Position numbers and translations under genes: made by a program. From positions 17,424,001-17,488,000 of the forward strand of contig CM075989.1 in the NCBI GenBank assembly GCA_038087875.1: DNA of 64,000 nucleotides, given 5' to 3'. The notes under the pieces were generated by a model. It saw only the letters and a program-made list of their open reading frames with translations. It was not told the origin of the DNA and did not search any database. Of the stretch, positions 2-56,747 are shown one piece after another. Each line of letters starts with the position of its first letter. Within the stretch, counting starts at the first letter, position 1. The DNA comes from Malacoraja senta (taxonomy: Eukaryota).

Positions 2-461
2 GAGACCGCCGACGGGAAAAACCTTTGTACGGAACTGGAAATCACCAAATGTTCATCTATTCACAGGCTTTTAATAGTTTGTAATAATGTTAAGCGGTGC
101 TCTGATATTACAGGTGCATCATGGCCACATGTGACTGTGGTGAATTATGCGTATGAGTCCTCCACGCTGGATTCAATTTCTGCACAAGTGGCTGAAGCTT
201 TGAATGGAAAGCAAGTAAAATCTGTAGCTTTTGTTCTGTACAATCAGCAAGATGCGATACATATTTGCGGGGCTGGAGTGGTTCGGACACTCACGCCAAT
301 TTCTATCCACAAGCAATTAGCTGTGCGGAGATTCTTTAACAATATTGTGACCAACCACGTTGATGTGGAAGATTCAGATACCAGGATGGATATTCTGGGC
401 TGCACTGCCCTGATGACTGCAGACTTGGAGGAAGTCAAGAGGGAGCTGCAGAGTCTGACAG
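2..461 (+). CDS. Exon 1 (5'-partial): DUF4347-like domain
   Basis: Frame is open from nt 2: ETADGKNLCTELEITKCSSIHRLLIVCNNVKR...VVNYAYESSTLDSISAQVAEALNGKQVKSVAF...MDILGC...ELQSLTG. Donor G|GTATAT at 461/462, phase 1. Confidence 0.8.
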
Positions 462-3400: not shown

Positions 3401-6400
3401 CAACTGGCACACAACACCAACTAATGATCATTAAATAATATGTATCTAAGTGCTTATGTATAGTGATACTTGTACTGAACAATACACATCAACAGATTTC
3501 ACTGGACCTCGGTACGTGTGACAAATAAAGTACCTTACCGTATTAATAGTAAATGCAGAGGCTTTGCTCTGGTGGTTACGTATGTTGTCATTCCAGGAGG
3601 CCAGTGACCTTGCCACTTGACCTACACCCAGTTCCACCTCAGCATGTGGCTGTTCGTTTTTTTTATAAGGTATGCCAGGTTAATATGTCTTCAAAAACCA
3701 CTGAACATCTCGTGGTATTAAAGTGGAAATTGCCTGGGTCAAATCGCCTGTGTGTTCCCGTGTAGTTGGGAGAAAGGAACATCTTGCTGCTCACACATCT
3801 AATTTTTTGTGTAAAGTCCAAAGACCTTCTGCCTACTATTTGTTTCCTTCAGGCACCAGACTTAAACTGGCCACTATTACTTTGGCGGTGGAGTATCCAG
3901 AAACTTGTTATAGTTGGTCGAACTTCAAGGTTCTGTGAATTGTATTGCATTAATAAATTATGTTTTCTTTCCAGATAAATTTGCATAAAGTCTGTTAAAA
4001 CCACATTTGTTCAAACAGAATGCTAAATACTGAGGCTAATTTAGACAAACCTCAAAGTCCTTTGATAATTTCTTGTTAGGAACGGTTAAATAATATGTTA
4101 TTTCCCAGTCTAAGGCATAGAGAGCTACTTCAGGAGAAATAACACAAATTAGTGTTCAATCGCAATTTAAATTAAAGCTAGTGTTCATTAAATAAATTTA
4201 AATACAGCTCAAGTTAACATTTTGAACATTATTTATAATTAAGTAATAATTAAGCAATTATGCCTCTGAGGTCAAGACCTGTTAATTGTGCTAATCGGTA
4301 GGATGCAAAGTAATTTACTAATTACTGCTGTTATGCTAATCGTACACAGTACCCTAATTATAGGTTATGGGGAACTTCAGCATCACTGTCATGTTGCAGA
4401 GACTCCGTTGGTGTAAGGGGATATTTAGAGCCATTATTTGCTTAATTAAGCCACTGTACTAAAATAGATATGAGTGAAACATATAACACGCAACTCTGTT
4501 CTTCACAAAATCCCCACACTTGTCCCCAAAGCCTGTACAAAGAGGAATTTGCACAGGTATTCTTATCCTGTAGATAAAACTGTGGGCATGATGAGTGAAC
4601 TACGCTCCTGGTGTTTGTCCTCACATTGCCCTACAGAGCCCTAGTGCGTAGTGAGACCACACCTGGAGTATTGTGTGCAGTTTAGGTCCCCTAATTTGAG
4701 GAAGGACATTCTTGCTGTTGAGGGAGCGCAGCGTAGGTTTACAATGTTAATTCCCGGGATGGCGAGCCTGTCATATGCTGAGAGAATGGAGCGGCTGGTC
4801 TTGTACACTCTGGAGTTTAGAAGGATGAGAGGCAGATCTCATTGAAACATATAAGATTGTTAAGGGTTTGGACACGCTGGAGGCCGGAAACATGTTCCCG
4901 ATGTTGGGGGAGTCCAGAACCAGGGGCCACAGTTTAAGAATAAGGAGTAAGCCATTTAGAACGGAGACGAGGAAACACTTTTTCTCACAGAGAGTTGTGA
5001 GTCTGTGGAATTCTATGCCTCGGAGGGCGGTGGAGGCAGGTTCTCTGGATGCTTTCAAGAGAGAGCTAGATAGGGCTCTTAAAAATAGCAGTCAAGGGAT
5101 ATGGGGAGTAGGCAGGAACGGGATACTGATTGGGGATGATCAGCCATGATCACATTGAATGGCGGTGCTGGCTCGAAGGGCCGAATGGCCTACTCCTGCA
5201 CCTATTGTCTATCGTTTATTGGACAAGAGAGGAACGTATCTCTGTGGACATGTAGTGTAGGCACAATGTAGCAAATAATAGTCGTCAAATAGTAGATTGC
5301 CCAGCTGCCATGTTGAATTACCAATCGAGCAAAGTAACCATATATGCTACATCTACAGGCTCTCTGAAGAAGGGTCTTGAAAATCACCTATTCATTTTCT
5401 CTAGAGATGCTGCCTGACCCACTGAGTTACTCCAGCATTTTGTATCTATCTTCTCTCAAGAGTGACTCTGCTTTATTAATTTATTTCAAAGTGATCAGAA
5501 GAAAATCTGAGCCAGGGTTTTCTTTTTTCAGGTGTTCCTGTTGGTATGACAAGAACCGTGCTGGGCAACGAGTTGGTGGCAGGTCCAAACCAGGTGGCGG
5601 GAGATGTAAAGATGCACATCCTGGATCTCTACTGTGAAAGCGAGAAGTTGAAACGGCCGCATCCCCAAACACTGGCAGAGTTTGAAAAGATACACATAGT
5701 GGGAAAAGGTGAGCTTGGAGACCCTACTACATGGCAGCGCAGCGGTAGAGTTGTTGCCTTACAGCACCAGAGACCTGAGTTCGATCCTGACCACGGATGC
5801 TGTATGGAGTTTGTACGTTCTCCTGTGACCGCGTGGACTTTCCCCGGCTGCTCCAATTTCCTCCCATACTCCAAAGACGTGCAGGTTTATAGGTTAATTG
5901 TTTTTGGTAAAGGTTATAAATTGTTCCTGGTGTGTAGGATAGTGCTAGTGTACGGGGATCACTGGTCAGCATGGACACAGTGGGTCGAAAGGCCTCTTTC
6001 CGCACTGTATCTCTAAACTACACTACCTCATCTTCCCACCAGGCCCATAGGACCCACACCCTCCATCACTTCCTCCACCAACCTTGCAACTGTGGGGCTG
6101 GTGGATAATGTGCACAATGTGTTCTGTTGTGCCTGAACACTGTGTGCAATAGAATTTCACTGCTGGGAGGGCTCATTTAAAATGGGTGTGTGTCCCACAC
6201 AAAATCTTTTCACCTTCTCCTGAAATAGTCAAGTTGGTTTAATTGCTGTCATAATTCTGAGCGTTTTCCGTTTGGCGCCAAAGGAATTATTGGTAGCCAT
6301 TATCCATTAGTCGCAGTAGTACAAGTGAGCATCTGATCTCTTTCCTAGAATATCATCGCTAAAATGTTTCACAGGTCAATTAATATGAGTACTCAAAAAA

Positions 6401-9400
6401 TTGTGCAAAAGTTAAGATTTCGCCGGGAGATTATCTGATCAGGTAGAAGGTACAGGAGCCTGAAGACTGCAACGACCAGGTTCAGGAACAGCTACTTCCC
6501 CACAGCCATCAGGCTATTAAACCTGGCTCGGACATAACACTGAACTTTACTAGCCAATACTGTTATTTGCACTTTATCAGTATATTGACCATTGTGTATA
6601 TATTTATAGAATGCCTTGTAGTAAATGCCTACTATGTTCTGTTGTGCTCAAGCAAAGCAAGAATTTCATTGTCCTACCAGGGACACATGACAATAAACTC
6701 ACTTGACTTGACTTGATACGATATGATAGAACTTTATTTATCCCAGGAGGGAAATTGATCTGCCAACAGTCATATAAAAACACAAAAACACAAAATACAT
6801 GAAACATGAAATTATGTTCCCATTCTTCTGCTAGGAGCCTATGGGACAGCAGTTCTGTATCGGAAGAAGGATGATGACTCCCTGGTCATTCTTAAAGAGA
6901 TCAACATGCATGAGCTGAACCACATTGAAAGACAGAGGGCATTGAATGAGGTTTGTGTGTCTAACTCTGAATTGTGTACACCATTGTTTACACACCATGG
7001 AATTTATAGGCAAAGCTGATAACAATAGATTATGGTACAAGGTGCACACCTGTCCCAGCCTGTCAGCTCCAGTGATTCAGGTTTGGCCCTGACCTCGGGT
7101 GCTCTCTGTGTGGAGTTTGCACCCTCTCCCTGTGGCAATGTGTTTTTCCCCCAGATGCTCCAGTTTCCCACATCCCAAAGAGATGCCAATTGGTGAACCA
7201 ATTGACTGCTGTAAATTGTCCCTAATGTAGGTGCGCAGTGTAAGCATTTATAAAAGAGTGGAGTTGAAGAGCATGTGCGTGCAAATACATTATAGGAATG
7301 GTCTGGGTAGAATAACATGCTAGGAGTTGGCATGGAGGTAATGAACTGAATAGTGTCATGCCATGAGAAATGTCATGTCAAGCAGAAAGTGGTGGACATT
7401 TTCCGTTCTGTCACGAGTATTGACCCCACCATTGTGTTACCTGCCTCAAGAAGGCAGCTAATATTAACAAAGAGCCAGACCACCCTGGCCACAATCTGCT
7501 CTCACTGCTATCATTGGGAAGAAGGTTCAGGAGCCTGAAAGCCATTACCTCCAGGTTCAAGAACAATTTCTTCCCATCATATATCAGGCTCTTGAACCCC
7601 TCTGCACATCCCTAACCAGAACCCCATCTGAGTAATGAACTACTGTGGATTTCTAATAAAGTTGCACTGCCTATTTTGGCTTGCACTATTATGAAACACA
7701 AAGTGCGTAGCTACTCGGGTCAGGCAGCATCTCTGGAGGGAATGGACGTGAGATTTTGGGTCGGAACCCTTCTTCAGATTATCATGGTCTTGTTACCGAG
7801 TATAACTGATAATTTATTGTATTATTGGTTAGAGTTATTTTTTATTACAATTAATGATAATATAATAACTAAATCATAGAAATATTATATTTATTATTGT
7901 TGTGTTGCTGCATTAATGTGTCTCTAAAGCTGCAGCAAGTAAGAATTTCATTGTTCTATTCCCGGTGCAAAGGACAATTAAATACTCCCTGACTTTTGAC
8001 TCTTGAAATAAGTATAAAAAGATAACCCCAGTATGGCCAATGTGAGTGAGCATGAGAAGCCCAGATACTGTGGTCCGTGTGAATGAGTATGTGTAGCCCC
8101 ATCTCTTATGGTTGAGTGTGAACTAATGCAGACCCGATGGTCAATGTGCATGAATATGAGTGTAAGCTTTTTGTTCATCTTTCCCTGCTGTAGGTGAAGG
8201 TGCTTTCCATGTTGGATCACCCCAATATTATTAATTACTACGACAGCTTTGAGGAGGATGGCGTTCTGATGATTGAGATGGAATATGCAGAAGGAGGAAC
8301 ACTGGCACAGTACTTGGCACAGCAGGTACTTTACATGGCAAAGATTTTTAACTGGAACTGGTGCATACGTTGTAGGAGCGGAATTGGGCATTCGGCCCAT
8401 CAAGTCGACTCCACCATTCAATCATGGCTGATCTATCTTTCCCTCTCAACCCCATTCACCTGCCTTCTCCATATAACCCTTGACACCTGTATGAATGAAG
8501 AATCTGTCAATCTCCACCGTAAAAATATGAATTGACAGCCTCCTCAGCCTTCTGTGACATTGTATTCCACAGATTCACCTCACTCTGACTAAAGAAATTT
8601 CTCCTCATCTTGATTCTAAAGGTACGCCCTTTTATTCTGAGGCTATGGCCTCTGGTCCTGTACTCTCCCATTAGTGGGAACATCCTCTCCACATCCAAAT
8701 GTTTAAGTGTTTCTCCTAAATGGGAGTGAGCTACAATTTAGATCTCTCCGTCAATGCCACAATGTACAATGAACCAAAGAAACTGACCCTGAGGTACAGA
8801 TTAATTGATTTAAACATTGAATAAAAAGCAAAGTGCTGGAGGAAGTCAGGGGTGAGGCAGCATCTGTGGAGGGTAATGGGCAAACAATCCTTTGGGTCAG
8901 GACCCTTCTTCAGTGTGCTCTGCCGAGTTCCTAAGCAGTTTATTTTCTCCAGGTTCCAACATCTGGAGTCTCTTGTGTCTCCGTTTGTTTGAATTGCTTC
9001 TTTAAACTTCATTAATATAGTGAGAATCTGGAATATAATGTTTCCAGTACACACTAATTCAATCAGATTTCATCAAAGGTATCAAGGCCTATTCAAGTAA
9101 AGCAGAAAGATGCACATAGTCATAGTCATAGAGTGATACAGTGTGGAAACAGGCCCTTCGGCCCAACTTGCCCACACTGGCCAACAATGTCCCAGCTGCA
9201 CTAGTCCTACTTGCCTGCGCTTGGTCCATATCCCTCCAAACCTGTCCTATCATGTACCTGTCTAACTGTTTATTAAACAATGGAATAGTTCCAGCCTGAA
9301 CTACCTCCTCTGGCAGCTTGTTCCATACACCCACCACCCTTTGTGTGAGAAAGTTACCCCTCGGATTCCTATTAAATCTTTTCCACTTCACCTTGAATTG

Positions 9401-23615: not shown

Positions 23616-23656
<41 letters not shown>

Positions 23657-44600: not shown

Positions 44601-47600
44601 TGGATGGAGGTAGACAAACCTTCATCTGCCTCTCTTTGCCTGATATCTTTCCCCATTCCATCAGTCTGAAGAAGGGTTCCAACCCAAAAGGTCATCTTCC
44701 ATTTACCTCCACAGGTGCTGCCTGACCCGCTAAGTTCCCCCAGCACTTTGCTTGCATCATTTAATTACCAGCTATCATATCAATGGAATGTTTCTTCACA
44801 GGTGTTCTGCATAAACTTTAGAAAACTTGAGTTAAATCTCAGTATCCATAATTTCTCTGACATTCGTCTTCTATGCCTAGGTGTCTGGCTGAATTCTGAG
44901 GCTTCAGTTCTGAAGAGCTCCAAATATTCCCACCACCCATCTCACACTACATCACCTCTCCCAAAGAATAAGGTCTGGCAGCTTCCTGTAAATATCAGTG
45001 TGGTTTAATTAGCTTAAAAATAGTTCTTTTCTAAACGTACTCTGCATAATCACAATTTAATTGCATGAAATTTGCATATGCCATGTCTTAATAGAATATT
45101 AATTCAGCTAATTGTATTTTAATCTTTTTTTATTAAAGATATGTTGTTTTTTAAATGTCCCTGATGGTTATGTGAATAGGGAGTAAATTGCTTGCGGACA
45201 AAGGAACATCCGGAAAATGGGATGCGTTTATAAACATGATGACAAGAGATGAGAGCCTGCATCTTCCTGTTGAAATGAAGGGCAAGACTGGTGGGAGTAA
45301 GATGGCCTGGATGATGAGAACAAGTGAGGCTCTGGTCAGGAGAATGTAGGAGGAATGGGGTCAGATACAGGCAGGTGGGATCATGTGTATCCCTGGAAGA
45401 GCTTTGGGACTGAGGAGAATAATTATGCCTGAAATCAAAGAGGCAAAAAGGGAGTAGGAGGTAGCTCTGGCTGATAACATCAAGAAAAATCCAGAGGTTT
45501 TGTATACATTCAGGAAAAGAGTGTAACTAGAAAGAATAGGACCCTTCAGAAACCAAAGCGGTCCTCTCTTGCAGCTCCATATGGAGATGGGCAAGGTCCT
45601 CAACTAGTATTTCTCCTCGGTTTTTAGAGAAGGACATAAAGGCAGGGGAACTTGGGACACAAGCCAATCATGACGTATCAGACCAGAGTTCAACCCATGC
45701 CTGGGTTAGGATGGGTGGTGACCTACAGTGGATGGCATCAGTTCACTGGTTGTGTTTTGATAGTAATCTATTGGCTATATTGGAACACGGGAGGCTTCGG
45801 GGTGACCTTTTAGAGGTTAATAAAATGATGAGAGGCGTAGATAGGATAGAGAGAATCTGTCTGTTCTATCTAGAGATCAAAATCTTTTTCTCAGAGCAGG
45901 CTAGAACTCATTGGCATGCGTTAAAGGTGAGAGGGGAGAAATTGAAAGGAGATCGTAGGGATAAGCTTTCACACAGAGGGTTGTGTTAACCGGAACAAGC
46001 TGCCAGTGAAGGTGCAAGGGGCAGACACAATTACAATGTTTAAAAGGCAACTACTGTTATTGAATCAAACGGCATGGAAACTGGCCCATCAGCCCAATTC
46101 ATCTATGCCAACTAGTACCAGTTAAGTGCATTTGGCCCATATTCCTTTAAACATTTCCTATTCATGTACCTGTCCAGGTGTCTTCGAAATATTGTTATTA
46201 AATCTGCCTCAACTACCTCTTCTGACAGCTCATTCCATATACCCACCACCATCAGTGTGAAAAAGCTTCCCCCTCTGTATAAAATTAGGTTTTAACATAT
46301 CAGCTTCAACAATAGTTTCAAGACTTCAACAAAGGGTGGATGAGCAATAAAACCCTGCTTCTGTTCACCAGGGTACCAACTTCACTGGAGAGGTGAAGAG
46401 AAAACAGACAGCTGATGAGATAATTCAGTCTCAAGAGAAAAACTGCACCAGTCTGTACCTCCTGGAGGAGCAGCAACGATTGACACTGGTAAGATAGCTT
46501 GTTTCTGTTGAAGGGTTTGACCCCATTAATGTTGGGAACATGTGCGGATCTTCAGGTGATGCAGTGAAACTGGCCTGGAACTACCATTGAAATGTAATGC
46601 AGTGTCCTTCAGATAGCCGAACTGCTTCAAGCTGTAACTAACCTATGGCTCCACACACACACATACACACATCTCCACAGTTGTCTTTAAGTTAGGTTCA
46701 ATAATATTGACCAAAACTGATTCATGGTATGTTCCAAATTTGTCATTATTGTTGGACAAACAGCAATGGGCCCAGCACCGATCTCTGAGGCACACCACTA
46801 GTCACAGGCCTGCAGTCCAAAAAAACAACCCTCCACCATTGCCCTTTGCATCCTTCCTTGAAGCCAATTCTCTATTCCATCAGTTACCTCTCCCCGGATC
46901 CCATGCGACTAACCTTCCAAAGCAGCCTACCACGCAGAACCTTATCAAATGCCTTGTTGAAATCCACATAGACAATGTCTACAGCTTTGTCCTCGTCAAT
47001 CTTTGCAGTTATTTCTTCAAAATACTCAATCAGATTGATAAAACACAATCTCCCATGTATAAAATTGTGCAGACTATCACTTCTCCACCACTGTCTATCC
47101 AAATCTTTAGAATCCTCACCAGAAACTTGCCTACCACCGATGTTAGGCTCACTGGTCTATAGGTCCCAGGCTTTTGTTTACAGCCCTTTTCAAAGGTGTT
47201 TTACTGAGAACCACAACAGTTGTAGTCTCTGGGGTTTCAATAACAAGGACCAAATGATTTATTTTTGATGATTGTGTTTCACTGTAATGACCCTACAAAC
47301 CTTGGATTCTCTGGTAACCCAGGACTTTTGCTGCACTGGAAGTAAGGCCTGGATTATATGCTCAAGTGCAGGACTGTGGCTTGAATCAATATTCTTCAGT
47401 GGCATGTAAATGTTTATCAATTAGTTCAAACTGGTGCCTTGAGATGGAAAGTTGCTGCTCCAGATTGGCTGATGTTCAGGCTGCAATAATGATGTCCCCT
47501 GAAACAGATACAGACGATTTGGAAAATAAAAATTATCCTTCTGCTCTCAAAGCAATGAAACGCACACGTGAGAGGCAGGCTTGAAACATTTATGTGCCCA

Positions 47601-50600
47601 CAGGAGAAGCAAGTAGATTTATAAAATATAAAATATCCCTTTGCTGCAGGAAACTGTAGGAAACAATGAATTTACCTTTTACGCTCCACTGTGGATCACC
47701 CATAGAACATCGATTGCTCAACTCAAAGCCCAAAGATTGCTCAAAAAATTCATTATAAATATTTTAGATAGCATGCATCTCTTTGGGCTAGTGGGTATTC
47801 TTTCTTGCGTGTGCCAAATCTTCTAATTTACTCCAACTTTTTTTTTTGCATTCTGTCCAGGAAATGGTTTAGAACCTGTCAGTATCCTATCTTCCTTGCA
47901 CTTCCAATTTTAATTTAAAATTATAAAATGCTTCTGGTACAATATCAACAGTCTTGGTAGTTGCCAAATGAAGGCACTGCAGCATAAAGTATATAAATGG
48001 GACATCAATAAAAATCAAAGGTAGACAAAAATGCTGGAGGAACTCAGCGGGTGAACCAGCATCTATGGAGAGAAGGAATAGGCGACGTTTCGGGTCGAGA
48101 CCCTTCTTCAGACAAAATAGCCAAAACCAAATTAATTAAGATATCTACTGCCTACTGTTTTAATAAAAAAATATTAAAGCATTTAAATCCTTCTGTGAAC
48201 ATGGACAGGAGATTTGGCCCAGAAAATTCAACTGTGATTCACTTGCTATTGCAAACACCAATTAACAACTTAATAAGAATTGTTCATTTGAAGCTTTTCC
48301 AGTATTTACAATATTTACAATTAAGGAGCATTAAAACAATGAAAAAAGCTTGGCACTCTTCAAAATACTTTTGATGCAATATTGAATGCCAAGGCTGTAT
48401 TCCACACAGGTGACCAAGGTGTCAAAGTGCATTTAATGGTCCAAATACAAGTTTAAAAAAAATATTAGGTGTAGAACTGAGGTGTCTTGTATCTAGTGCT
48501 CGGATAATATATTTGCCAGCACTGTCTTGAAATAAACACTTATTTGTTGTCATTGAAGGTTGAGAAGGTTGTGGATGGGGTTTAATAGAAGGTTACATAA
48601 AATTGGAGAAATCAATGTTCATACCGTTGGGTTGTAAGCTACCCCAATTTTTATGATGGTGTTCTCTCACTGTAGAGTGGTGAATTTCCTCACTGTAGAG
48701 ATGGGTCTTTGTTTCCATACCAACAGTATGGTCAACCTTGCCAATTGTCCAAACAACGTCCCAGAAAACATGAGAAAATTCTCAGAAAGTTGATTGTGGA
48801 AGAAAATGCCTTTTAGGGTTCACAATGTTAATACGTTCGCACAGACATAGCTCCTGTCCTAATGTAGATAAACACAAAATGCTGGAGTAACTTAGCGGGA
48901 CAGGCAACATGTCTGGATAGAATGAATGGGTGACATTTCAGGTCACCCATTTCTTCTACCCATAGATGCTGCTTGTCCCGCTGAGTTACTCTAGCATTTT
49001 AAGTCTATCTTCAGTATAAACCAGCATCTGCAGTGCCAACTATGATACTAATCCCATCTGCCTGTTTATGGTCCTTATCCCTCTATTCCATGCCTGTTCT
49101 TATGTCTAAATGCCTCTTTAACATTGCTATTAAAATGGCTTCTACCATCCCCCCTGGCAACGCATTCCAGGCACCTCAGAAACCTCCTTTAAACTTTCCT
49201 CTTCTCAGCTTAAATCCATGCCTTCTAGTATATGATGTTTCCACTCTAATAAAAAGACTCTATTTATGCCTCTCAATTTTATAAACTTCTATCAGCCTCC
49301 AACTCTACGGAGAAAACAATCCAAATGTGATCAATCTCTGTGTGCAGCTAATACTCTCCACTAAGCAACAGAGAACTGTGGCAGAATTGTAGTGATTGCC
49401 CTTATCAATGGCATCGTGTAACCGGACACTCAACTGGAAGTGATTTACTTTCCCTGTAATGTGAAACACCTGGGTGCCCTGCCCCCGAGTCTCCCCATCG
49501 TGTCGTGGGGGACGTCATCAGTGCAACATCTGGGTAATTTCAGGCACAACCCCTTGCTCCGGTTACCGTGAGTCTGAATGTCCCATGGTGTCACCCACTC
49601 TGGAAGCACCTTTTGATCCGGCGTGGGGACAGAAGTCAGACACGACAAGAGCCCATGCTGGAAATGGTGTGTGCATCCGATCATATCGCTGGGCTCCGTC
49701 TGCACTTAAATTAGGAACATACAACATTCTTAGTGCCCTGTGTGCCTCTGAACCGTCCTCCCAACTCTTTATAGGCACTTGGGGGAAGATTCCTTCTCTG
49801 AGCCGCGTGTAGCAAATTCATAAACCCCTCGTTTATAGACGCAGAAGAGATCCTACTTTTTCCCATCTCCCAGAAAAGATGTTAAGAAATGATAGTTTAT
49901 GGAGATGGGCTTGCGCTGGCTGCAATTATACTGAGATATGCCTCCCAGCCACGCATTCACTCTCTAAATCAAAATCTTACACCGGTCCGGTCACAGTTAA
50001 ATTACACGTTTTACAGTGCAGTGAGGTTGAAATCATATAACTGCATCATGAGGCCCCAGCGGCTGGCTAATGAGATCTTAACAGGCAACAAGAAAGCCCG
50101 AAGAAAATTGGAGATTAAAATTTTCTCACCAAATTAGCATCACATAAATATTTACGGGCAGATCTAAGTGTGTATTAATGATTAGTGAAAACATTTCAAA
50201 TTAATTATGGCAAGCAGTTGAGAGTTTAAAATAAATTCTTTTAGGAGTGGAAAAGACAAAAACCTTCTGCACAAATGAGATCATTAGTGGGGGAAGATGT
50301 CAGATTCACAGGGGGCCACAGTGGGCTTTGATTCAGAACTTGATGTCAGGGTCACTGCACCCTGGGTAGGGGTCACTGAGCACGGCTATCATTACTGATT
50401 GGCTGTATTCTGATGACACTCCTGAGCAATGCTGAAGAAAGACCAAAAGGAGTTAAAGTGATCCAGGGAGGCAGGGAACAATACAGCGGCAGCTTTCTTT
50501 TACAGCTGCCCGGGCTTCCGTTAGAGAAAGGAGTCCAGGGAGAAAAAGGAGACAGGAGTTAGAATGAAAATAGGCCTCAAACAAAGGCTTGACTAATATG

Positions 50601-53600
50601 CCAACAATGAAAGGGAGTTTTTCAATCTCCTTTTTTGATTCTTTTGTGGAAAATACTATGAGACAAAGCAGCAATCCAAGCCGTTACCACTGGGAGTGAG
50701 AGAGTGCCATCGCTTATGACATTCTCTCATTTTCTTAGATCCTAATCGTGACGGTGTCCATTTAACGCAGATTTTTCAAGCTTGCTGTGTGCTTGTTTAG
50801 CTCTCTCGTGGTTTGTAATGATAAAGGTGTTAGCTGGCACCAGGCCTGGCTGCATATTATCACGTTGTGTGTGATCCCGCTGCCAGTGTCACACTTCAAA
50901 CCACAAGGGGCACTTCTGCAGCACCAGACTGACAGAAGACATGTTCCTGTGTTGTACTGTTCTATATAAAGCAGGGCAGAATCGCCCAGATTCAATTCTT
51001 GAATTGTTAGATGTAATTTTCATCAGGATTTTGGCATGAGAATTATGCTCGCTTTGACTGGACAAAACACGGCAATTAGACTTTTGGAGTCGTACAACAC
51101 GGAAATTAGCCTCTCGGCCCAATGGGTCTCTCCTGATCGTTCAGTATTGATTCCATTTACCAGCATTTGATGTGTAAGCATTTGTTGTGGGCTCCGTCAC
51201 TAGTGAATGCTGGGGATGGCTGAAGCCCCATGGAGTACATAGTTGACGACGGTCACGGTTTAGGGCTGTCACGGAGAGGCGTAGAGGTAGCTTTGCTGCC
51301 TTACAGCTAATCCAGCGCCGGAGACCCAGGTTCGATCCTGACTACGGGTGCTGTCTGTACGGAGTTTGTACGTTCTCCCCATGACCTGCGTGGGGTTTCT
51401 CCGAGATCTTCGATTTCCTCCTACACTCTAAAGATGTACAGGTTTGTAGGTTAATTTTCTTGGTAAATGTAAAAATTGTCCCTAGTGGGTGTAGGATAGT
51501 ATTAATGTGCGGGGATCGCTGGTCGGCACGGACCCAGTGGGCCGAAGGGCCTGTTTCTGCGCAGTATCTCTAAACTAAACTAAGACCTTGACTTTAGGCC
51601 TTAGAGACACAGCGCGAAAACAGGCCCTTCGGCGATCGGCAATCACCCCATTCACTAACATTATCCCACACACTAGGGACAATTTACAATTTTCACCAAA
51701 GCCAATTAAACTACAAATCTGTACGTCTTTGGACTGTGGGAGGAAACCGGAGCACCCGGAGAAAACCCACGCGGTCACAAACTCTGTACAGGCAGCACCC
51801 ATAGTCATAAGGTCATAAGTGACAGGAGCAGAATTGAGCCATTTGGTCCATCATGTCTACTCCGCCATTCAATCATAGCTGATCTATCTCTCGCTCCTAA
51901 CCCCATTCTCCTGCCTTCTCCCCATAACCCCTGATGCCCATCGTCAGGATTGAACCCAGGTCTCTGGTTCTGTAAGGCAGCAGCTCTACCACTAGCCACT
52001 GTGCTGACTTAGTTATGAAGAATGATCATTATTGCTAACTCTCATGGGGAGTACAATTGGAAGGACGCTGCATTCAAACAGCTTTGCAGCTGTATCAGTA
52101 TTACTGGATCATTGGTTCCTTCTGTATATTAGCTCCAGCTGAGGATCCAGTTTTACTTAATATGTTTTTGTGAAATTTGGATCCTGTACTAGCTGTGCAG
52201 CATGGGGTGAGAGTCTGTTACTCAAACATCTGTACTGTTCCATAGGAGCGGGAAGCCAGACTTCAGATGGAGATAAATAAACTGCACAAGGAGCTGAGCG
52301 AACAGAAGCAGCTCCTGAAGGAGAACCACGACGTCATGCGGCAGTTACAGGAGCAGCTTCTGAAGGTCTGAAGACTCTCCCCATCCCATTCCCACACCCC
52401 CCAGCCCCCACCCCCCACCACCACAGCCCAACCCAAGCCAAGCATCACGTCACCCCCTACCTCCCCCCACTCCCGCCTCCCCCACAACAAATCACCCCAC
52501 CTACCATCCCTCCTCCCCACCGCCAACCCTAACATCACATCAACTAACCCGCCCTATTTCCCCAATCCTGCCCCCACCACAACACCGCTCATTTACCAAC
52601 ACCACCCTATTGCCCCTACCCCCGACTCCTGCATCACGCTAGCCTATCCACCCCTTTGGTTAACCCACCCCTACCTCCCCCAACCCAAACCCACATCCCT
52701 CCCCCACCTCCCCAAACCCCAGCATCACGTCTACTAACCCGTCCCTACACCCCCCAACCCTCCCCGCATGTCCTATGATCGGTGTGCTCTGGCGACAATG
52801 GTGTGGATGCAGTGTAGCACCACTACTAATATGTTTCAGTGATTTGATGAAGGGACCATGTGTAAGATACACAAATTTGCTACTGATTCAAAGCTGGGTG
52901 GCAGAGTGGGATGTGTGAAGACATAAGGAACTGCAGATGCTGGTCTACCACAGAAGACACAGAGTGCTGAGGTAACACAGCGGGTCAAGCAGCATCTTGG
53001 AGAACATGGATAGGTGGCTTTTTGGGTCGGGTTCCTACTTCAGATTGATTGTAGTTGTGGGGAGAAAGCTGGAAGAGAGGTGGGGGCAGGACAAAGCCTG
53101 GCAAGTGATAGAGGGATAGGCTGTGTGAAGAATGCGCAAGGCTCAGTGAGGAAGGACAGCCAGTTGATTGAATAAGTACATCCATTGGGTGTATTAAGGT
53201 GAGGAGTATTTAAGGTGACAAAATTAAGGTGAAGAGTATTTCTTAAATGGTGACATGTTAATGATGCTAATGTTTGGACATTCCTGAATATCCTTGCAGA
53301 TTAATTGCTGAAAATTAACAAGCAGATACAGAGCTATTTAGAAGGCAAATTGTATATTGACCTTAATTGGAGAAAAATTTGAGTATCAGAGTGGAATCAT
53401 CTTTCTCTAGTTATAAAAGGCCCTGGTGAAACTTTTCTCATTATTTATTGAAGGATATACTTACAATAAACAAACTGCAGTGAAGGTTAACCAGATTGAT
53501 TCTTGAATCAGGTGTGTCTCCTAATGAAAAAAATGAAGCTATACTCTCTTGAGTTTAGAAGAATGAGAGATAATCATATTGAAACGTATACAATTCTTAC

Positions 53601-56600
53601 GGGGCCTCACAAGGTGGATGCTGATCTGATATTGCCGTTGACTGGAGAGTCCATGACCAGAGATCACAGTTTCATAATAAGGGATTAACCAATTCAGTAC
53701 TGAAGTGGGAAGAAACGTCATCACCCAGAGCCTGGTGAAACTCTCACTCACGATCACTGTGAAGGCTCAATTGATGACTACCATCAAGCCAGAGGAGTGG
53801 TCTACTATGCTGCTAAGCAGGATGATCACTTTGAGTGCATCAGGCATTCTGGACCCGTTGTAGGCTGGAAACTCATACCTTGCACATTGAACAGTACACA
53901 CAGGCTTGAGCATGTAAATTCAATCCACATTGTTAGGGTGGTTTTAATGTTGCTTTCTGGATGTTTTCATGCAGCATCCATAGGTGTGTGACAACATCAC
54001 AGTCTCAGGTATTATGTTGTTGGATTCATTTTAATGGAAGAATCACAGAAATTAACAGATGGAGGCCATTCTGCCCATTGTGCTGATGCATGTCAAAACC
54101 TGCTCATGTTAATCCCACCTCCAGCCCACAGTCTTGAAGACATTTCCAGTGCTCTCCCAGGTACTTCTCCAGAACAATGAAGATTTGATTTCCACCTCCA
54201 TTGCTCTTCATGTCAAAACCACCACCACCCTTGAGGTGGAAACAAAACATTCCACACCCCTCTGATCCTTTCCTCAATTACTTTAAAGTGACAAGATTTT
54301 GCCTTTTAGATAATCCCATCTATCCTTTGATTTTTGCCTCTCAGAACAGGACCATAACCTCCTGTAACAGAGCGGTTTCTGTTCAATTTAGTTTAGATTA
54401 GAGCACAGAAACAGGCCCTTCGGCCCACTGAGCCCACGCCGACCAGTGATCCCCACATACTAACACTATCCTACACACGCACTAGGGCCAATGTACAATG
54501 TTACCAAAGTAAATTAACCTACAAACCTGTCCATCTTTGGAGTGTGGGAGGAAGCCCTGCAGGTCACGGGGAGAACGTACAAACTCCGTACAGACAGCAC
54601 CCCTGCTCGGGATTGAACCGGGGTCTCAAGCACTATAAGGCAGCAACTCTACTGCTGCTCCACCTTGCTGCCCTTCTGTTCCGCCGTGCCACCCATGGAT
54701 GTGGTTGGTTTTGTCTCTGTCCACAGCAGGTTGTGAGAGAACAGCAGGCTTTGAAATACATTGATTGGAGATGAAGGGGTTAGTGCTGCTGATATTGAAG
54801 CACATCTGCTAACATCATTCTTCAGTACCTCCGGCCAATGGCCCCAAAGCCTACTTTGTTTTAGCGCAAAATCTTCTGCTTGACACATCTGCAACTGATT
54901 TGAATGAAATGCTTTCAGGAAGCATCTTTCAGACAAGAGACCCTAAATTGTTGAATAATTATTGTTTAATCAGAAAGGATCCTCTACCTTTTTCACATTC
55001 TTCAGCCTTTTAAAATAATTAAATGGCATTTATTTCTGGTCCCTACGAGTGCCCTGTGCAATATACCTGCACAGAGCTGTGTAGCACTGGTATGACCAAG
55101 AGGCTATCTGCATACACAGAACACAAAAGAGTCACCACAAGGCACCGACAAAGTTATAAAAGTACCTTTAAATATACTTGGTCCTTTCTTTGCCCCCCTA
55201 CTAATAAAAGAGTAGACACTACTCTTGTGTCTTTAACCAGCTACCTATATATCTTGCCACACTGTTTATGATCCCAATGGTAGTTGGGTCGGATGGATAC
55301 TGGTGTGGTTTGGGGAGGGATCTATTCTTGACCATGCTGCCCAAAGATCCTATAGCGGAGCAAGATAGACCACTCCTGCTAAATGCAATGGGCTGACGTG
55401 TAGTACGCAACGGAACAGAACGTGGGCCTTTTTTTCATTCTTTTCCGTAACCGGACCCGACCCGACTCGCAGTGTAATCAACGTTGCGGGGGAACAGTTT
55501 GTGTTAATAAATTAAAATTCTGAAAATGAGGAGAAGATTTTTACCAAATAACTTTTATTTTTACGAGGATGTTTCCGTAACCGGCTTCTGTCTCCGCACT
55601 ATTATCCGATGGGATCTTTGGTGCGGAGACGGAAGCCGGTTACGGAAATGGGGCCTTAAATTACCCATGTATCTGCCCATGACCGTACTATGTCTTTTTC
55701 GTCAAGTGGACTATCTTGCTCGCTATAGGATCTTTGATGCTGCTGGTCAGATCCACATTTGTTGATATGGATGAATGGGTGCACAGAGGTGAGTGCAATC
55801 ACTGAACAATACACACTACTGTCTAGTGCTGGCCAATAAAGGCACATGTCATCTCCACCAACACCCTCCCTGTGCTTGGTTTTAAAAATGAACCTCTTGT
55901 GTGTCACCAATTACCCTTTGCCAATCCACTCTGTGAATTTCCAAAAGGGACTCTGGTAGGTTTTTCAGACGCACCTGGTTTTTGCAAATATTGGCGAATT
56001 TCCAAAAAAGAACTATAGAAAGTTTACCAGGTGTGTCTGTACTTTTGCAAATATTGGTGTCATTATCTATGTTACCTCTTTCTGGGTGAGCTACTAGCCT
56101 TGTCCTTGTTACACCCTCTGGTACCCACCACCGTTGAAGTAAGACAGCTCGTGCAGATATGCGGTGCGGGCATGGGATATGTCTGAAATGGAAGGGGAGC
56201 TGTTTGATGTTATGGCTGTTGGCTCCAAGTATGGTCATAATGTGCTCTCTGTCTGCATGCATGGCTTTGCATTAATCATTGTAGCAGCATGTGCCACTGT
56301 GTGAAAATGCATTGAGTGAGTGCGCTAATGACCCGGCAGACTTCAGCCGTAATGGAAAATAAGCAGTATCTGCTGATTTATACCTGCGATGTTATTCTGA
56401 TATATGGATTGGTTCTGGCACTGTTTAGCTGCATACGGAATTCATGGGTGGATGACCTGTTTTGGCCCTTGCACTGGATTGGATAAAATCACCCCACCCA
56501 TCCCAACGTTCAGCCATCCAGCTTCCAAGATGATGAATCGTGCAGTTGGTTTTGTTTAACTCACTGTTCCTTTTTTCCTCTCCCTCCCTCCCCCCCTCCC

Positions 56601-56601
56601 T

Positions 56602-56642
<41 letters not shown>

Positions 56643-56747
56643 CCCAAGGTACAGTCCCAACAGTTCCGGAGCAACATCCAGGCAGAACGAGGGCGTGCGA
56701 TCAAAAGCACAGCCAAACCAGAGAGTAAAATCTGCGCTGTAATGTAA
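2..56747 (+). CDS. Spliced 22-exon NEK8/NEK9-family Ser/Thr kinase gene (DUF4347-like + kinase + RCC1 repeats + coiled coil + CaaX), 5'-partial
   Basis: Exons: 2-461, 5532-5708, 6835-6950, 8194-8325, 11477-11678, 11840-11959, 12164-12281, 13819-14035, 18702-18856, 20994-21198, 24636-24780, 25173-25273, 27691-27909, 33488-33766, 33939-34017, 35720-36436, 41061-41137, 42880-43021, 44881-44972, 46372-46488, 52246-52365, 56649-56747. All introns are GT-AG and phases match. Total is 4089 nt (1362 aa + stop). Kinase and RCC1 exons are secure; exons 15-22 rest on splice signals and phase. Confidence 0.88.
4627..5220 (+). mobile_element. CR1/HER1 LINE 3' fragment
   Basis: RPHLEYCVQF...LEFRRMRG and SRTRGHSLRI...FFSQRVVSLWN motifs, then a 3'UTR. 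Confidence 0.9.
5532..5708 (+). CDS. Exon 2: end of the N-terminal domain and start of the kinase (FEKIHIVGKG)
   Basis: Acceptor ttttttcag, donor G|GTGAGC. Joins exon 1 in phase (LTG|VPVGMTRT). Confidence 0.9.
5730..6020 (+). mobile_element. tRNA-derived V-SINE (HE1-like)
   Basis: A/B-box-like GGCAGCGCAGCGGTAGAG and GTTCGATCC, V-domain GGAGTTTGTACGTTCTCC, LINE-like tail TCTCTAAACTA. Confidence 0.85.
6438..6716 (+). mobile_element. Rex1/Babar LINE 3' fragment
   Basis: Near-identical reverse complement of 22245-22545, with a CTTGA tandem tail. Confidence 0.75.
6835..6950 (+). CDS. Exon 3: kinase subdomains I-III
   Basis: GAYGTAVLYRKKDDDSLVILKEINMHELNHIERQRALNE. Acceptor ctag, donor GTTTGT. 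Not in the ORF track. Confidence 0.93.
8194..8325 (+). CDS. Exon 4: kinase subdomains IV-V
   Basis: VKVLSMLDHPNIINYYDSFEEDGVLMIEMEYAEGGTLAQYLAQQ. Acceptor tag, donor GTACTT. Confidence 0.93.
8360..8698 (-). mobile_element. CR1/HER1 LINE 3' fragment
   Basis: ORF 8507-8698: ERMFPLMGEYRTRGHSLRIKG...FFSQ. Confidence 0.8.
9116..10010 (-). mobile_element. CR1/HER1 LINE fragment
   Basis: ORF 9089-9700: PHLKYCVQFWAP...TRGHQFKV...QRVVGVWN. (CTATGA)n tail. Confidence 0.9.
11477..11678 (+). CDS. Exon 5: kinase catalytic loop and DFG
   Basis: HRDLKTANLFL...KLGDFGVAKVMMTGSEAHTILG. Acceptor ttgcag, donor GTGAGT. Confidence 0.95.
11840..11959 (+). CDS. Exon 6: kinase subdomains VIII-IX
   Basis: [41 protein letters not shown]. 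Donor GTAAGG. Confidence 0.95.
12164..12281 (+). CDS. Exon 7: kinase subdomains X-XI
   Basis: GTNLPAVVNKIMKGQFAPITDNYSAEFKALVLDMLQKETQ. Phase-2 donor CA|GTAGGT. Confidence 0.92.
12290..13260 (-). mobile_element. Degenerate CR1 RT-region fragment
   Basis: GSLLGPLLFVTYISDLD motif in ORF 12172-12411, with upstream CR1-like sequence. Confidence 0.7.
13280..13650 (+). mobile_element. Penelope-like element fragment (GIY-YIG C-terminus + terminal repeat)
   Basis: HFNSPSHSHTDLSVLGLLHCQSEAQHKLEEQ..HLIFRLGCLHPSGMN, then CTGAAGAAGGGTCTCGACCCGAAACGTC. Confidence 0.8.
13819..14035 (+). CDS. Exon 8: kinase end (YRPSAHELL) and linker into the RCC1 domain
   Basis: Acceptor atag, phase 2 completes the Q codon. 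Donor CAG|GTGAGT. Confidence 0.9.
15090..15370 (-). mobile_element. CR1/HER1 LINE fragment
   Basis: ORF 15072-15320: ALERVQRRFTRMIPG...SRTRGHSL. Confidence 0.82.
16610..16878 (+). mobile_element. V-SINE (HE1-like)
   Basis: Same consensus as 5730-6020. Confidence 0.82.
16906..17252 (+). mobile_element. Retroposed L1-like 3'UTR fragment with TSD
   Basis: T-rich body, GTACTTCTAATAAAA end resembling the 19190 element, A-rich tail. 13-bp TSD AAAAGTCTCTTTG at 16893-16905 and 17253-17265. Confidence 0.7.
17835..17935 (+). mobile_element. Old Deu-domain SINE remnant (SacSINE1/AmnSINE-like); weaker copy at about 545-650
   Basis: GGTGGATTCAAGCCC...CTTGAG...TGACACATCAGTAAAGTACTGAAGGAG resembles the DeuSINE consensus as I recall it. 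Confidence 0.45.
18165..18436 (-). mobile_element. V-SINE (HE1-like)
   Basis: Reverse complement of the SINE consensus. Confidence 0.8.
18702..18856 (+). CDS. Exon 9: RCC1 repeat
   Basis: IAVSDKHMIAVTADRAVYTWGINLKGQLGHGDLQSRSRPQLVEALKGKFIAR. Donor GTAATA. Confidence 0.93.
19190..19682 (+). mobile_element. 5'-truncated L1-clade LINE with poly(A) tail and TSD
   Basis: ORF2 end EMRFLLVGKADQFQKTWSTFLDLLQA*, T-rich 3'UTR, long A tail. 14-bp TSD AAAAACTGAGTCTA at 19176-19189 and 19683-19696. Confidence 0.82.
20994..21198 (+). CDS. Exon 10: RCC1 repeats
   Basis: ACAGEGFSVFVSDNGIVMTSGDGAQGCLGHGD...IACGRHHVVCVSGDGE. Donor GTGAGC. Confidence 0.93.
22245..22735 (-). mobile_element. Rex1/Babar LINE 3' fragment inserted into a fold-back element
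   Basis: ORF reads LQKVVNTAQSIIG...HPGHTLISLLPSGRRYRSLKTATTRFRNSYFPTAIRLLN. Short CTTGAA-type tandem tail. Confidence 0.8.
23394..23654. repeat. Compound (CA)n/(CACG)n microsatellite, with degenerate CA-rich sequence to about 23990
   Basis: Directly visible. Confidence 0.97.
24636..24780 (+). CDS. Exon 11: RCC1 repeat
   Basis: VFSWGSGKFGQLGLGNDVNSSLPVKI...VKCGLDGTMFLT. Donor GTATGT. Confidence 0.93.
25173..25273 (+). CDS. Exon 12: RCC1 repeat
   Basis: DSGGPLACGNNQYNKLGLNERRGLLMQMTTLFAR. Donor GTGAGT. Confidence 0.9.
25714..25905 (+). mobile_element. V-SINE (HE1-like), 3'-truncated
   Basis: SINE head and V-domain are present. A shorter copy lies at about 24905-25040. Confidence 0.75.
26010..26620 (-). 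mobile_element. Degenerate CR1 ORF2 fragment
   Basis: ORF 26009-26266: KGKRVTKERMGPL...VDKSPRPD. Confidence 0.68.
26920..27490 (+). mobile_element. Penelope-like element fragment
   Basis: Frameshifted copy of the same GIY-YIG end and terminal repeat seen at 13280 and 39360. Confidence 0.75.
27691..27909 (+). CDS. Exon 13: RCC1 repeats
   Basis: TDVEGRKVPTLVKAL...LGPSHTIVLVEPGNIYTFGRNTEGQLGTGN...KTIT. Donor GTAGGT. Confidence 0.93.
28240..28535 (-). mobile_element. V-SINE (HE1-like)
   Basis: Reverse-complement consensus with TTTAG tail. Confidence 0.8.
30385..31999 (-). mobile_element. Full-length Tc1-family (IR/DR type, DD34E) DNA transposon
   Basis: 213-bp TIRs (30385-30597 and 31787-31999) starting CAGTGGCTTGCAAAAGT, about 5 mismatches. 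Flanking TA on both sides. Internal transposase. Confidence 0.97.
30603..31622 (-). pseudogene. Tc1 transposase, 339 codons with one internal TGA at codon 315
   Basis: Paired-like HTH, GRPPK, WSDETK, QQDNDPKH and SPDLNPIE (34 residues between D and E). The ORF stops at 30678-30680 but the frame continues AKLVETYPKRLAAVIAAKGGSTKY* to 30603. Confidence 0.93.
32360..33020 (+). mobile_element. Degenerate CR1 fragment
   Basis: GAGGGATCTTGG, TTGGAGAGGGTGCAGAAGAGATTC and ACACAAAGAGTGGTGGGTGCCTGGAAC blocks shared with other CR1 copies. Confidence 0.7.
33488..33766 (+). CDS. Exon 14: late RCC1 repeat plus Ser/Pro-rich segment
   Basis: MISCGETFSVAGTDDNNILFWGTK...PPHSQ. Acceptor tttctttcag, donor GTTAGC. 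Confidence 0.88.
33939..34017 (+). CDS. Exon 15 (short)
   Basis: Acceptor ctctctcctgcag, KDNSWSKAVSLDERMTSIKGQRKAMR, donor G|GTGATT. Supplies the phase 0-to-1 change needed between exons 14 and 16. Confidence 0.7.
35720..36436 (+). CDS. Exon 16 (large) with NEK9-like PTWIRNELNDA motif
   Basis: 717-nt open frame, including ORF 35860-36474. Acceptor ttctttag, donor G|GTGAGA. Confidence 0.82.
36735..37080 (+). mobile_element. CR1/HER1 3' fragment
   Basis: Matches the reverse complement of 8360-8698 and 15090-15180. Confidence 0.75.
37738..38130 (+). mobile_element. CR1/HER1 3' fragments
   Basis: Near copy of 4958-5220 (RAVEAGSLDAFKTELDRALK). Confidence 0.8.
39360..39920 (+). mobile_element. 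Penelope-like element fragment
   Basis: KRRLGDRFTEHLR...VANHFNSP...RKLEEQHLIFCLGSLHPSGMN plus terminal repeat. Confidence 0.82.
41061..41137 (+). CDS. Exon 17
   Basis: Acceptor ttctcag, VQDFSVSASRRGHYQTEVDVGSISTQ, donor GTATGT. Phase 1 to 0. Confidence 0.68.
41252..41485 (+). mobile_element. V-SINE (HE1-like) with internal deletion
   Basis: GCACGGTGGCGCAGC head and LINE-like tail. Confidence 0.78.
42880..43021 (+). CDS. Exon 18
   Basis: Pyrimidine tract then atag, ICSNPGTTCGRN...RVGRGRGKSRG, donor GTAAGA. Phase 0 to 1. Confidence 0.7.
43570..44385 (-). mobile_element. CR1 reverse transcriptase fragment
   Basis: RPVSLTSVVG, DFSKAFDKVPH, GVPQGLVLGPLLF and KFADDTK motifs across ORFs 43620-44272. 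Confidence 0.9.
44881..44972 (+). CDS. Exon 19
   Basis: Acceptor cctag, GVWLNSEASVLKSSKYSHHPSHTTSPLPKNK, donor GTCTGG. Phase 1 to 0, required to join exons 18 and 20. Confidence 0.6.
45210..46050 (+). mobile_element. Degenerate CR1 fragments
   Basis: Similar to the reverse complement of 26010-26620, plus RLRGDLLEVNKMMRGVDR. Confidence 0.62.
46372..46488 (+). CDS. Exon 20
   Basis: Acceptor caccag, GTNFTGEVKRKQTADEIIQSQEKNCTSLYLLEEQQRLTL, donor GTAAGA. Only phase 0 is open. Confidence 0.7.
46755..47190 (-). mobile_element. CR1 reverse transcriptase fragment
   Basis: NLIEYFEEIT...VDIVYVDFNKAFDKV. Confidence 0.85.
51280..52005. mobile_element. Two V-SINEs tail-to-tail (+ 51280-51582, - 51592-52005); the second carries a CR1 3'UTR insert
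   Basis: Consensus matches in opposite orientations, with a CR1 tail at about 51802-51933. Confidence 0.8.
52246..52365 (+). CDS. Exon 21: coiled coil
   Basis: EREARLQMEINKLHKELSEQKQLLKENHDVMRQLQEQLLK shows heptad Leu/Ile spacing. Acceptor catag, donor GTCTGA. Confidence 0.82.
52376..52766. repeat. C-rich degenerate tandem / low-complexity region
   Basis: Recurrent CCCTACCTCCCC and AGCATCACGTC units with very few G on the + strand. Confidence 0.8.
53180..53790 (+). mobile_element. Degenerate CR1 fragment
   Basis: LYSLEFRRMRDNHIETYTIL...TRDHS in ORF 53503-53688. Confidence 0.65.
54385..54692 (-). mobile_element. V-SINE (HE1-like)
   Basis: Reverse-complement consensus ending GCCGTGCCACCC. 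Confidence 0.8.
54730..54774 (+). CDS. Candidate alternative terminal exon (VVREQQALKYIDWR*)
   Basis: Acceptor tgtctctgtccacagcag (tandem NAGNAG, alternative start 54727), in phase 0 with exon 21. AATAAA at about 55203. Confidence 0.4.
   Translation, partial: VVREQQALKYIDWR
55342..55736. mobile_element. Non-autonomous hAT-type MITE
   Basis: TIRs CAAAGATCCTATAGCG(G)AGCAAGATAG... and ...CTATCTTGCTCGCTATAGGATCTTTG. 8-bp TSD ATGCTGCC / ATGCTGCT. Confidence 0.82.
56570..56640 (+). repeat. (CCCT)n(CT)n microsatellite forming the polypyrimidine tract of the terminal exon
   Basis: Directly visible. It ends 8 nt before the exon start at 56649. Confidence 0.9.
56649..56747 (+). CDS. Exon 22: terminal exon ending in CaaX (…KPESKICAVM*)
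   Basis: Long CT tract then ccccaag acceptor. Phase 0 reads VQSQQFRSNIQAERGRAIKSTAKPESKICAVM-TAA. Confidence 0.72.
   Translation, partial: VQSQQFRSNIQAERGRAIKSTAKPESKICAVM

Follow-up and report, generated by a model that had tools for sequence, protein, structure and literature searches.

We consider it rather probable that the cartilaginous fish Malacoraja senta carries a third member of the NEK8/9 group, likely lost in bony vertebrates, whose CaaX tail, predicted to be farnesylated, would likely route the kinase via PDE6D to cilia. By its domains and motifs, the predicted gene product is shown to be a NEK8/NEK9-group kinase with intact catalytic motifs. The window is the whole 64,000-nucleotide stretch of contig CM075989.1 analysed here (positions 17,424,001 to 17,488,000, forward strand), and coordinates refer to it unless another locus is named.

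Exons were placed by mapping homologous proteins onto the window with tblastn, followed by splice-site inspection. The resulting model has 22 exons on the forward strand with predicted splicing, and all 21 introns are GT-AG. The window holds the 3' part of exon 1 (2-461), which encodes most of a DUF4347-type alpha/beta N-terminal domain (N-domain); exon 2 (5532-5708) encodes the end of this domain, a linker and the start of the kinase. Exons 3 to 8 lie at 6835-6950, 8194-8325, 11477-11678, 11840-11959, 12164-12281 and 13819-14035, exons 9 to 14 at 18702-18856, 20994-21198, 24636-24780, 25173-25273, 27691-27909 and 33488-33766, exons 15 to 20 at 33939-34017, 35720-36436, 41061-41137, 42880-43021, 44881-44972 and 46372-46488, and exons 21 and 22 at 52246-52365 and 56649-56747. 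The joined frame of 4,089 nt encodes 1,362 aa and a single terminal stop, ending in ESKICAVM. The model was 96% identical to Amblyraja P0002 over 1,147 aa and 68-74% identical to four shark and ray proteins over the full length. Because homologous proteins located the exons and identity to the Amblyraja, shark and ray proteins is high, the exon model is not a product of chance.

A preliminary description of this DNA had proposed 22 phase-compatible exons encoding about 1362 aa with intact catalytic motifs, and the GT-AG introns, single frame and homologue match bear this out. It had also placed the gene within 2..56747: the exons and the CaaX end stand, but the start does not, as the exon 1 frame continues upstream and a Met in line with the start of the relatives is found 74 codons ahead of window base 2 (L016:9780). 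Counting from this upstream Met, the full protein would be about 1,436 aa long. The first AATAAA 3' of the stop, a candidate polyadenylation signal, is at 57410..57415 (forward strand). A search for RNA covering exon 16 matched nine sequencing runs, none of them recorded as RNA.

Database models differ at several exons. Isoforms of relatives (P0006, P0008, P0013, P0004) skip exons 2, 13, 17-18 and 20, possibly by alternative splicing. In Rhinoraja model P0001 the splice donor lies within the CaaX codons and the next segment is a stretch found at window 57705-57758, after which the model continues into the downstream region. This splice is probably a prediction artefact; since the stretch is also present in the window, an alternative gene end is possible, and such a splice, if used, would offer a route to drop the prenyl site. 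The C-terminus is not CaaX in P0001 and P0002, the two closest batoid database models, or in P0012.

The NEK kinase domain spans exons 2-8 (5681..13867, forward strand) and an RCC1-like beta-propeller spans exons 8-14 (13961..33565, forward strand); Pfam recognised both on the window exons. All catalytic motifs are intact: GKGAYG (aa 211), VILKE (230), ALNEV (248), HRDLKTAN (325), DFG (345) and GTPYYISPE (363). With ortholog P0018 as query, the best PDB match of the kinase was NEK1 (E 1.5e-69). Kinase identity of the model was 94% to a shark ortholog, 76% to amphioxus, 71% to Pigoraptor, 66% to sponge and 51% to NEK8. A conserved tail segment was tried as a split last propeller blade and rejected, 70-158 of 200 shuffles scoring as high.

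A tree of 40 selected kinase+RCC1 rows (624 of 1,003 columns, LG+C20 PMSF), in which the outgroup was four unnamed kinase+RCC1 rows, one of them long-branched, resolved three clades: the third family (22 rows, 100/99), NEK8 (8 rows, 100/96) and NEK9 (6 rows, 100/100). The third family was sister to NEK9 at 87/87. Invertebrate NEK8s and NEK9s had been collected with NEK8 as query against 50%-identity representatives, and invertebrate and vertebrate NEK9s formed one group at 100/100. A kinase-only FastTree of 76 rows recovered these three groups as well, the third family at a lower support of 0.87. AU tests rejected joining three chondrichthyan rows with vertebrate NEK9 (p 3.8e-41) or with NEK8 (p 3.0e-6). 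Several species also carry more than one of these genes: Heterodontus has all three (P0004, P0130, P0293), Diadema antillarum has the third-family gene and NEK9 (P0030, P0382), and Apostichopus, Limulus and Macrobrachium nipponense have the third-family gene and NEK8. The claim of a third NEK8/9-clade gene was thus upheld by three supported clades, the AU tests and the three Heterodontus genes, and the kinase falls inside neither the NEK8 nor the NEK9 clade.

Caenorhabditis bovis P0337, mosquito P0361 and sandfly P0380 fell inside the third family in the 40-row tree, which suggests that C. elegans NEKL-1 and Drosophila Niki belong to it as well. Reviews place Niki in the Nek8/9 group and NEKL-1 as NEK9- or NEK8-like (PMC5716973, PMC4263411). 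A Nematostella apical-organ gene named 'NEK8/9-like ao18' in a published study (PMC4300403) could be matched to no particular paralog and does not enter the evidence.

NEK9 (Nercc1) is the nearest clade and resembles the third family in combining a NEK kinase, RCC1 repeats, an unstructured tail and a C-terminal coiled coil, and the first half of its NEK6/7-binding segment is common to both. It differs in its separate clade, at about 45% kinase identity, in the DYG of its vertebrate members and in having neither DUF4347 nor CaaX; the F821/I822 half of its binding segment is in turn absent from the third family. NEK8 (NPHP9) likewise pairs a NEK kinase with RCC1 (51% kinase and 34% RCC1 identity), but it is about 700 aa long, starts at the kinase and possesses no N-domain, half motif or CaaX; it forms a separate clade and occupies a separate locus in the M. 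senta genome. In 120 NEK8 rows no N-domain match was found under E=1, and 74 full-length NEK8 proteins showed no CaaX.

The preliminary description had called for separate nek8 and nek9 loci in the same genome, of which the first was found and the second was not. On contig C6 lies a separate kinase+RCC1 gene, an exon of which retrieves at least 120 rows that are NEK8 where named; its neighbourhood is unlike that of the third-family gene. The latter has a PARP16 exon about 17 kb away on one flank, and on the other an opposite-strand Ig/FN3/transmembrane gene, which we take to be IGDCC3 and upstream of which it sits. NEK9 was not found in the assembly with exon queries or with shark NEK9, the latter in a stricter first pass; four degenerate patterns built from NEK9 motifs returned only NEK8, another NEK or nothing from the same assembly, and no kinase was present in the 120 kb surrounding two of the three acylphosphatase loci. 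A MutL_C search of the assembly returned no gene at all, so the NEK9 searches are lossy, and the absence reflects either an assembly gap or lineage loss.

Several further loci were noted during these searches. The NEK8 locus (G000:C6:534678-562744, L031-L034) contains a 13.8-kb tandem duplication at 98.8% identity with three kinase exons, either an assembly artefact or a real internal duplication. A NEK with its entire kinase domain in a single exon (410-codon ORF, L026:934-2166, reverse strand; G000:C7:21.378 Mb) falls outside the NEK8/9 group; its Atlas clusters are named mollusc and chordate 'Nek6-like/Nek3', and it is a candidate for the gene that fish annotations call nek12. At G000:C4:14.48-14.53 Mb (L076, L093-L097), a single-exon acylphosphatase lies beside a FIIND-CARD (CARD8-like) gene and a TMEM17-family exon.

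Homologs were collected by a kinase-region search among proteins of 760-2,421 aa, and the best 120 of 398, ranked by kinase score, were examined. This set includes near-duplicates, among them five oyster isoforms and several shark isoforms, so family counts are not independent events. Among these best 120, chondrichthyans matched the query at 84-100%, followed by invertebrates at 65-77%. Amphioxus, a tunicate, hemichordates and echinoderms represent the deuterostomes; further members came from a brachiopod, molluscs, annelids, a priapulid, arthropods, a nematode, an acoel, a flatworm, cnidarians and sponges. By their source names, members also occur in Pigoraptor chileana, Oscarella pearsei, Chromosphaera perkinsii and Barroeca monosierra; P0019, P0087 and P0112, at 40-53% identity, are not clear members. 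By this membership the family is older than animals and not restricted to cartilaginous fish. The proposal of a gene kept in cartilaginous fish therefore holds for sharks and skates but was too narrow, as Pigoraptor, Chromosphaera, Barroeca and invertebrates have it too, and the suggested kinship with invertebrate 'Nek8-like' proteins proved right.

The order DUF4347-kinase-RCC1-coiled coil-CaaX is already present in Pigoraptor and Chromosphaera and recurs in sponges, most invertebrates and sharks. An N-domain HMM matched 117 of 121 proteins, seven of them in part only; dipteran and choanoflagellate members have no N-domain, and sandfly and leafhopper entries no CaaX. Single ORFs of 1,345-1,524 aa encode the whole architecture; they come from nine Logan contigs, each 4.7-7.6 kb long, and from the Oscarella entry, named a complete transcript ORF, and we infer that these are spliced transcripts. 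Proteins labelled 'Nek8-like', 'Nek9-like' or 'LOC' in sharks, invertebrates and unicellular holozoans thus share one clade and, in most cases, one architecture under names that are automatic only. Two Lineus longissimus proteins with neighbouring numbers (P0027, P0031) have the N-domain and kinase and neither RCC1 nor CaaX: they are either truncated paralogs or the result of split gene models.

No named bony vertebrate or cyclostome appeared among the family proteins in the best 120 of 398 within the 760-2,421 aa range, and the third-family ortholog lists held no teleost. In a 148-row tree the chondrichthyan clade comprised 18 rows, all cartilaginous fish by name, and directly beyond it identity to the model dropped from 83% to 76%. 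M. senta NEK8, in contrast, was 90-95% identical to bony vertebrates over one exon. The missing bony-vertebrate member, the identity gap and the NEK8 contrast together make loss likely, and we regard a true loss in all bony vertebrates as probable, on a basis of protein databases and the 760-2,421 aa window in which a shortened bony-fish form would be missed. A chicken candidate-gene table has PARP16 and IGDCC3 as consecutive entries (PMC12937304); as a selected list, it gives weak support for an empty interval between them.

The preliminary description had also proposed a DUF4347-like N-terminal head. Pfam run on window exon 1 alone returned no family and did not reach DUF4347 (PF14252), and a shark ortholog scored 17.5 bits, below the Pfam cut-off of 24.6. 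Of eight family members scanned, five passed: Pigoraptor (39.1), Nematostella (35.9), Corticium (31.0), Lingula (29.1) and Chromosphaera (25.9). A single-sequence fold of exon 1 was unusable (pLDDT 44.8), and the fold comparison rests on the catshark ortholog P0005 instead of the window's own sequence: AlphaFold with a 93-row alignment predicted an alpha/beta domain at residues 88-263 with pLDDT of about 95. Its best structural match among 48,161 representative chains was Tce1 (Z 10.3; rmsd 3.5 A over 147 residues; 10% identity), and the next-best chain reached Z 7.0; a second structural search agreed. Foldseek alone gave only generic alpha/beta matches. The Pfam scores of relatives and the Tce1-like fold of the catshark model support a DUF4347-like head. 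A complex prediction of the N-domain with the kinase domain, made without the alignment, scored 0.00 and speaks neither for nor against contact. ESM Atlas also gave NSMF-like clusters at 0.82-0.83, a lead only. The N-terminal extension just upstream of the window (L016:9780-9998) contains DSGVIS, a DSGxxS degron-like motif; DSGxxS was rejected as a family feature, occurring in 13 of 79 rows, of which 10 were chondrichthyan, and in few invertebrates.

Tce1 (PA0256, PDB 9qpe) of Pseudomonas is reported to contain DUF4347 (PMC8262886) and is described as a putative cysteine protease with His186 and Cys240 (PMC13323088). It shares its fold with the third-family domain, and its His/Cys register is matched in many orthologs: Heterodontus His155 and Cys209 are 54 apart, the same spacing as in Tce1. 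Unlike Tce1, the family domain is fused to a eukaryotic kinase, and the pair is incomplete in 69 of 109 members and in the M. senta gene. Here the alignment places Tyr at the putative catalytic His site (239..241, forward strand; His in 65 of 110 relatives) and Cys at the putative catalytic Cys site (401..403, forward strand), 54 residues past the His site, so the pair is broken. Across 110 aligned rows, one of them gapped, the pair was complete in 40 of 109, with His alone in 25, Cys alone in 29 and neither in 15. Most sharks, amphioxus, echinoderms, horseshoe crabs and several corals have both residues. Decay of the pair, repeated and independent, points to a module that is mainly non-catalytic, and in M. 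senta the N-domain is very likely a pseudo-protease that serves in interaction.

The tail is poorly conserved apart from a half motif, the coiled coil and the CaaX. The P-x-W-I-x-x-E-L motif in exon 16 (36121..36147, forward strand) matches the first half of the NEK6/7-binding segment of NEK9; P-x-W-[LI]-x-x-E-L occurred in 107 of 117 family rows (four rows were excluded as truncated or non-members, and short entries account for several of the 10 misses), 7 of 8 NEK9, none of 79 NEK8 and 16 of 2,340 shuffled tails. In register with shark NEK9, it corresponds to human NEK9 P809, W811, L812 and L816. Each of these is reported as required for NEK7 binding, and mutation of F821 and I822 as abolishing it (PMC4632185). 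Equivalents of F821/I822 are not kept in the family, no residue exceeding 20 of 107 at either position. With the first half kept and F821/I822 not, a docking helix appears common to the family and NEK9 and NEK6/7 binding is uncertain; we suggest only tentatively that NEK6/7 or another kinase docks there.

The C-terminal coiled coil is predicted by heptad score in exons 20-22 (46372..56680, forward strand), with its core in exon 21 (52246-52365); by a simple home-made heptad score it was found in 97 of 100 CaaX-ending relatives compared with 38 of 300 shuffles. The gene then ends in S-K-I-C-A-V-M-stop (56724..56747, forward strand), a CaaX with Ser(-3) and Ile(-1), in agreement with the proposed CaaX tail. 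Cys at -4 was present in 100 of 121 proteins. Among these 100 tails the last residue was M, Q or S in 98, Ser(-3) was present in 97, across phyla, and Ser(-3) combined with V, I, L or M at -1 in 95. Farnesyltransferase prefers a last residue such as M, Q or S, and the tail is very probably farnesylated, judging by its residues. The 16 positions before the CaaX Cys held on average 3.6 basic and 1.4 acidic residues.

Ser(-3) with a hydrophobic residue at -1 is reported to confer nanomolar PDE6D affinity and ARL3-specific ciliary release on INPP5E and GRK1 (PMC5512577), the same arrangement as in the third family, here a predicted cargo. NIM1K, a prenylated kinase with Ser(-3), is described as ciliary (PMC9857354). 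According to the same source, only 12 of 25 prenylated PDE6D partners have Ser(-3), FAM219A, which has it, was not observed within cilia, and with S>K mutants 56% and 100% of cells still showed ciliary protein (PMC9857354): the Ser(-3) rule for ciliary sorting is a tendency, not a guarantee. None of the cargos INPP5E, GRK1, NIM1K and RPGR is a NEK kinase. RPGR pairs an RCC1-like domain with a prenyl tail.

We propose a chain in which each step is inferred from sequence features and phylogeny, the only parts directly shown. The protein would be farnesylated at its CaaX, PDE6D would carry the farnesylated kinase, and ARL3 would release it at the ciliary membrane; delivery by this pair seems the better expectation from the tail sequence. 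There the kinase would dimerise through its coiled coil and phosphorylate local substrates; RCC1 and the pseudo-protease head would serve to regulate it or to bind partners. By analogy with NEK9, dimerisation and RCC1-based regulation are reasonably probable.

The same tail could instead hold the kinase at the plasma membrane or on endomembranes, where it would act in trafficking or in signalling to the cytoskeleton. The basic residues before the CaaX Cys would suit such an anchor, Ser(-3) is insufficient for ciliary entry (PMC9857354), nematodes and insects, in which few cell types bear cilia (PMC5716973), have retained members, and C. elegans NEKL-2 and NEKL-3 are reported to act in endocytosis. 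Yet Ser(-3) kept in 97 of 100 tails across phyla needs a reader, for which PDE6D Glu88 is published (PMC5512577), and NEK8, called a sister, is reported as ciliary (PMC11974183); we consider the non-ciliary anchor the less likely option. For the head, an active clan-CD-type cysteine protease in many lineages, which would free the kinase or cleave a partner in a protease-kinase fusion, would explain the Tce1-like fold, the conserved spacing and the 40 complete pairs. It appears improbable given the remaining 69 incomplete pairs, the Tyr in M. senta, the residue after the His, which is usually non-Gly, and a MARTX protease domain that reached Z 5.9, within background; in addition, Tce1 is itself only a putative protease, for which no activity in yeast is reported (PMC13323088). 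The absence of caspases among the top 50 structural matches excludes nothing.

Could the gene instead be an ortholog of NEK8 or NEK9, divergent or fused, or a model joining unrelated exons? The failure to find NEK9 in the assembly, the sister relationship to NEK9 and exon joins that are predicted in M. senta would fit. The AU tests, the three Heterodontus genes, the single invertebrate-vertebrate NEK9 group and the whole architecture in single ORFs on the Logan contigs and in Oscarella speak against it, and we regard this explanation as largely refuted and very hard to credit. A more far-reaching version of the preferred third-family reading would give the animal ancestor three RCC1-NEKs, the third being farnesylated and ciliary, fused to a cysteine protease of bacterial type that still works in sharks, amphioxus, echinoderms and corals, heading a membrane NEK6/7 cascade, lost in bony vertebrates and kept as Niki and NEKL-1, which would then be orthologs of neither NEK8 nor NEK9. 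Taken as a whole, this combination is quite doubtful.

The sequences are already in RefSeq and UniRef as 'uncharacterized' or 'Nek8/9-like', so the gain is one of recognition and mechanism. Reviews count two RCC1-bearing NEKs (PMC5716973, PMC4263411), and Parker 2007 describes the NEK kinase domain as N-terminal, with exceptions only in Tetrahymena. No description of a third subfamily was found in the literature searched, where supplements with kinome tables could list the family; the parts are known, and the combination, age, apparent loss and targeting signal are undescribed in that literature. A slowly evolving third subfamily that combines a folded head with a prenyl tail would change orthology assignments in invertebrate models. 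It would be the first candidate prenylated NEK, with a specific targeting route through PDE6D/ARL3, and would give a genetic handle on eukaryotic DUF4347 domains. It also adds one more ancestral gene kept by cartilaginous fish and apparently lost in bony vertebrates.

Two other elements were observed at the locus. A Reprolysin (ADAM/ADAMTS) propeptide exon (L071:5281-6267, reverse strand) lies on the far side of PARP16, about 44 kb upstream of the gene. Intron 13 contains an element at about 30400-31980 (reverse strand), presumably of the Tc1/mariner type, a family recognised by its motifs. Its ORF (30681-31634, reverse strand) is an uninterrupted 318-codon transposase frame and its ends form an 88-bp perfect inverted-repeat match, and by its sequence the element looks young.
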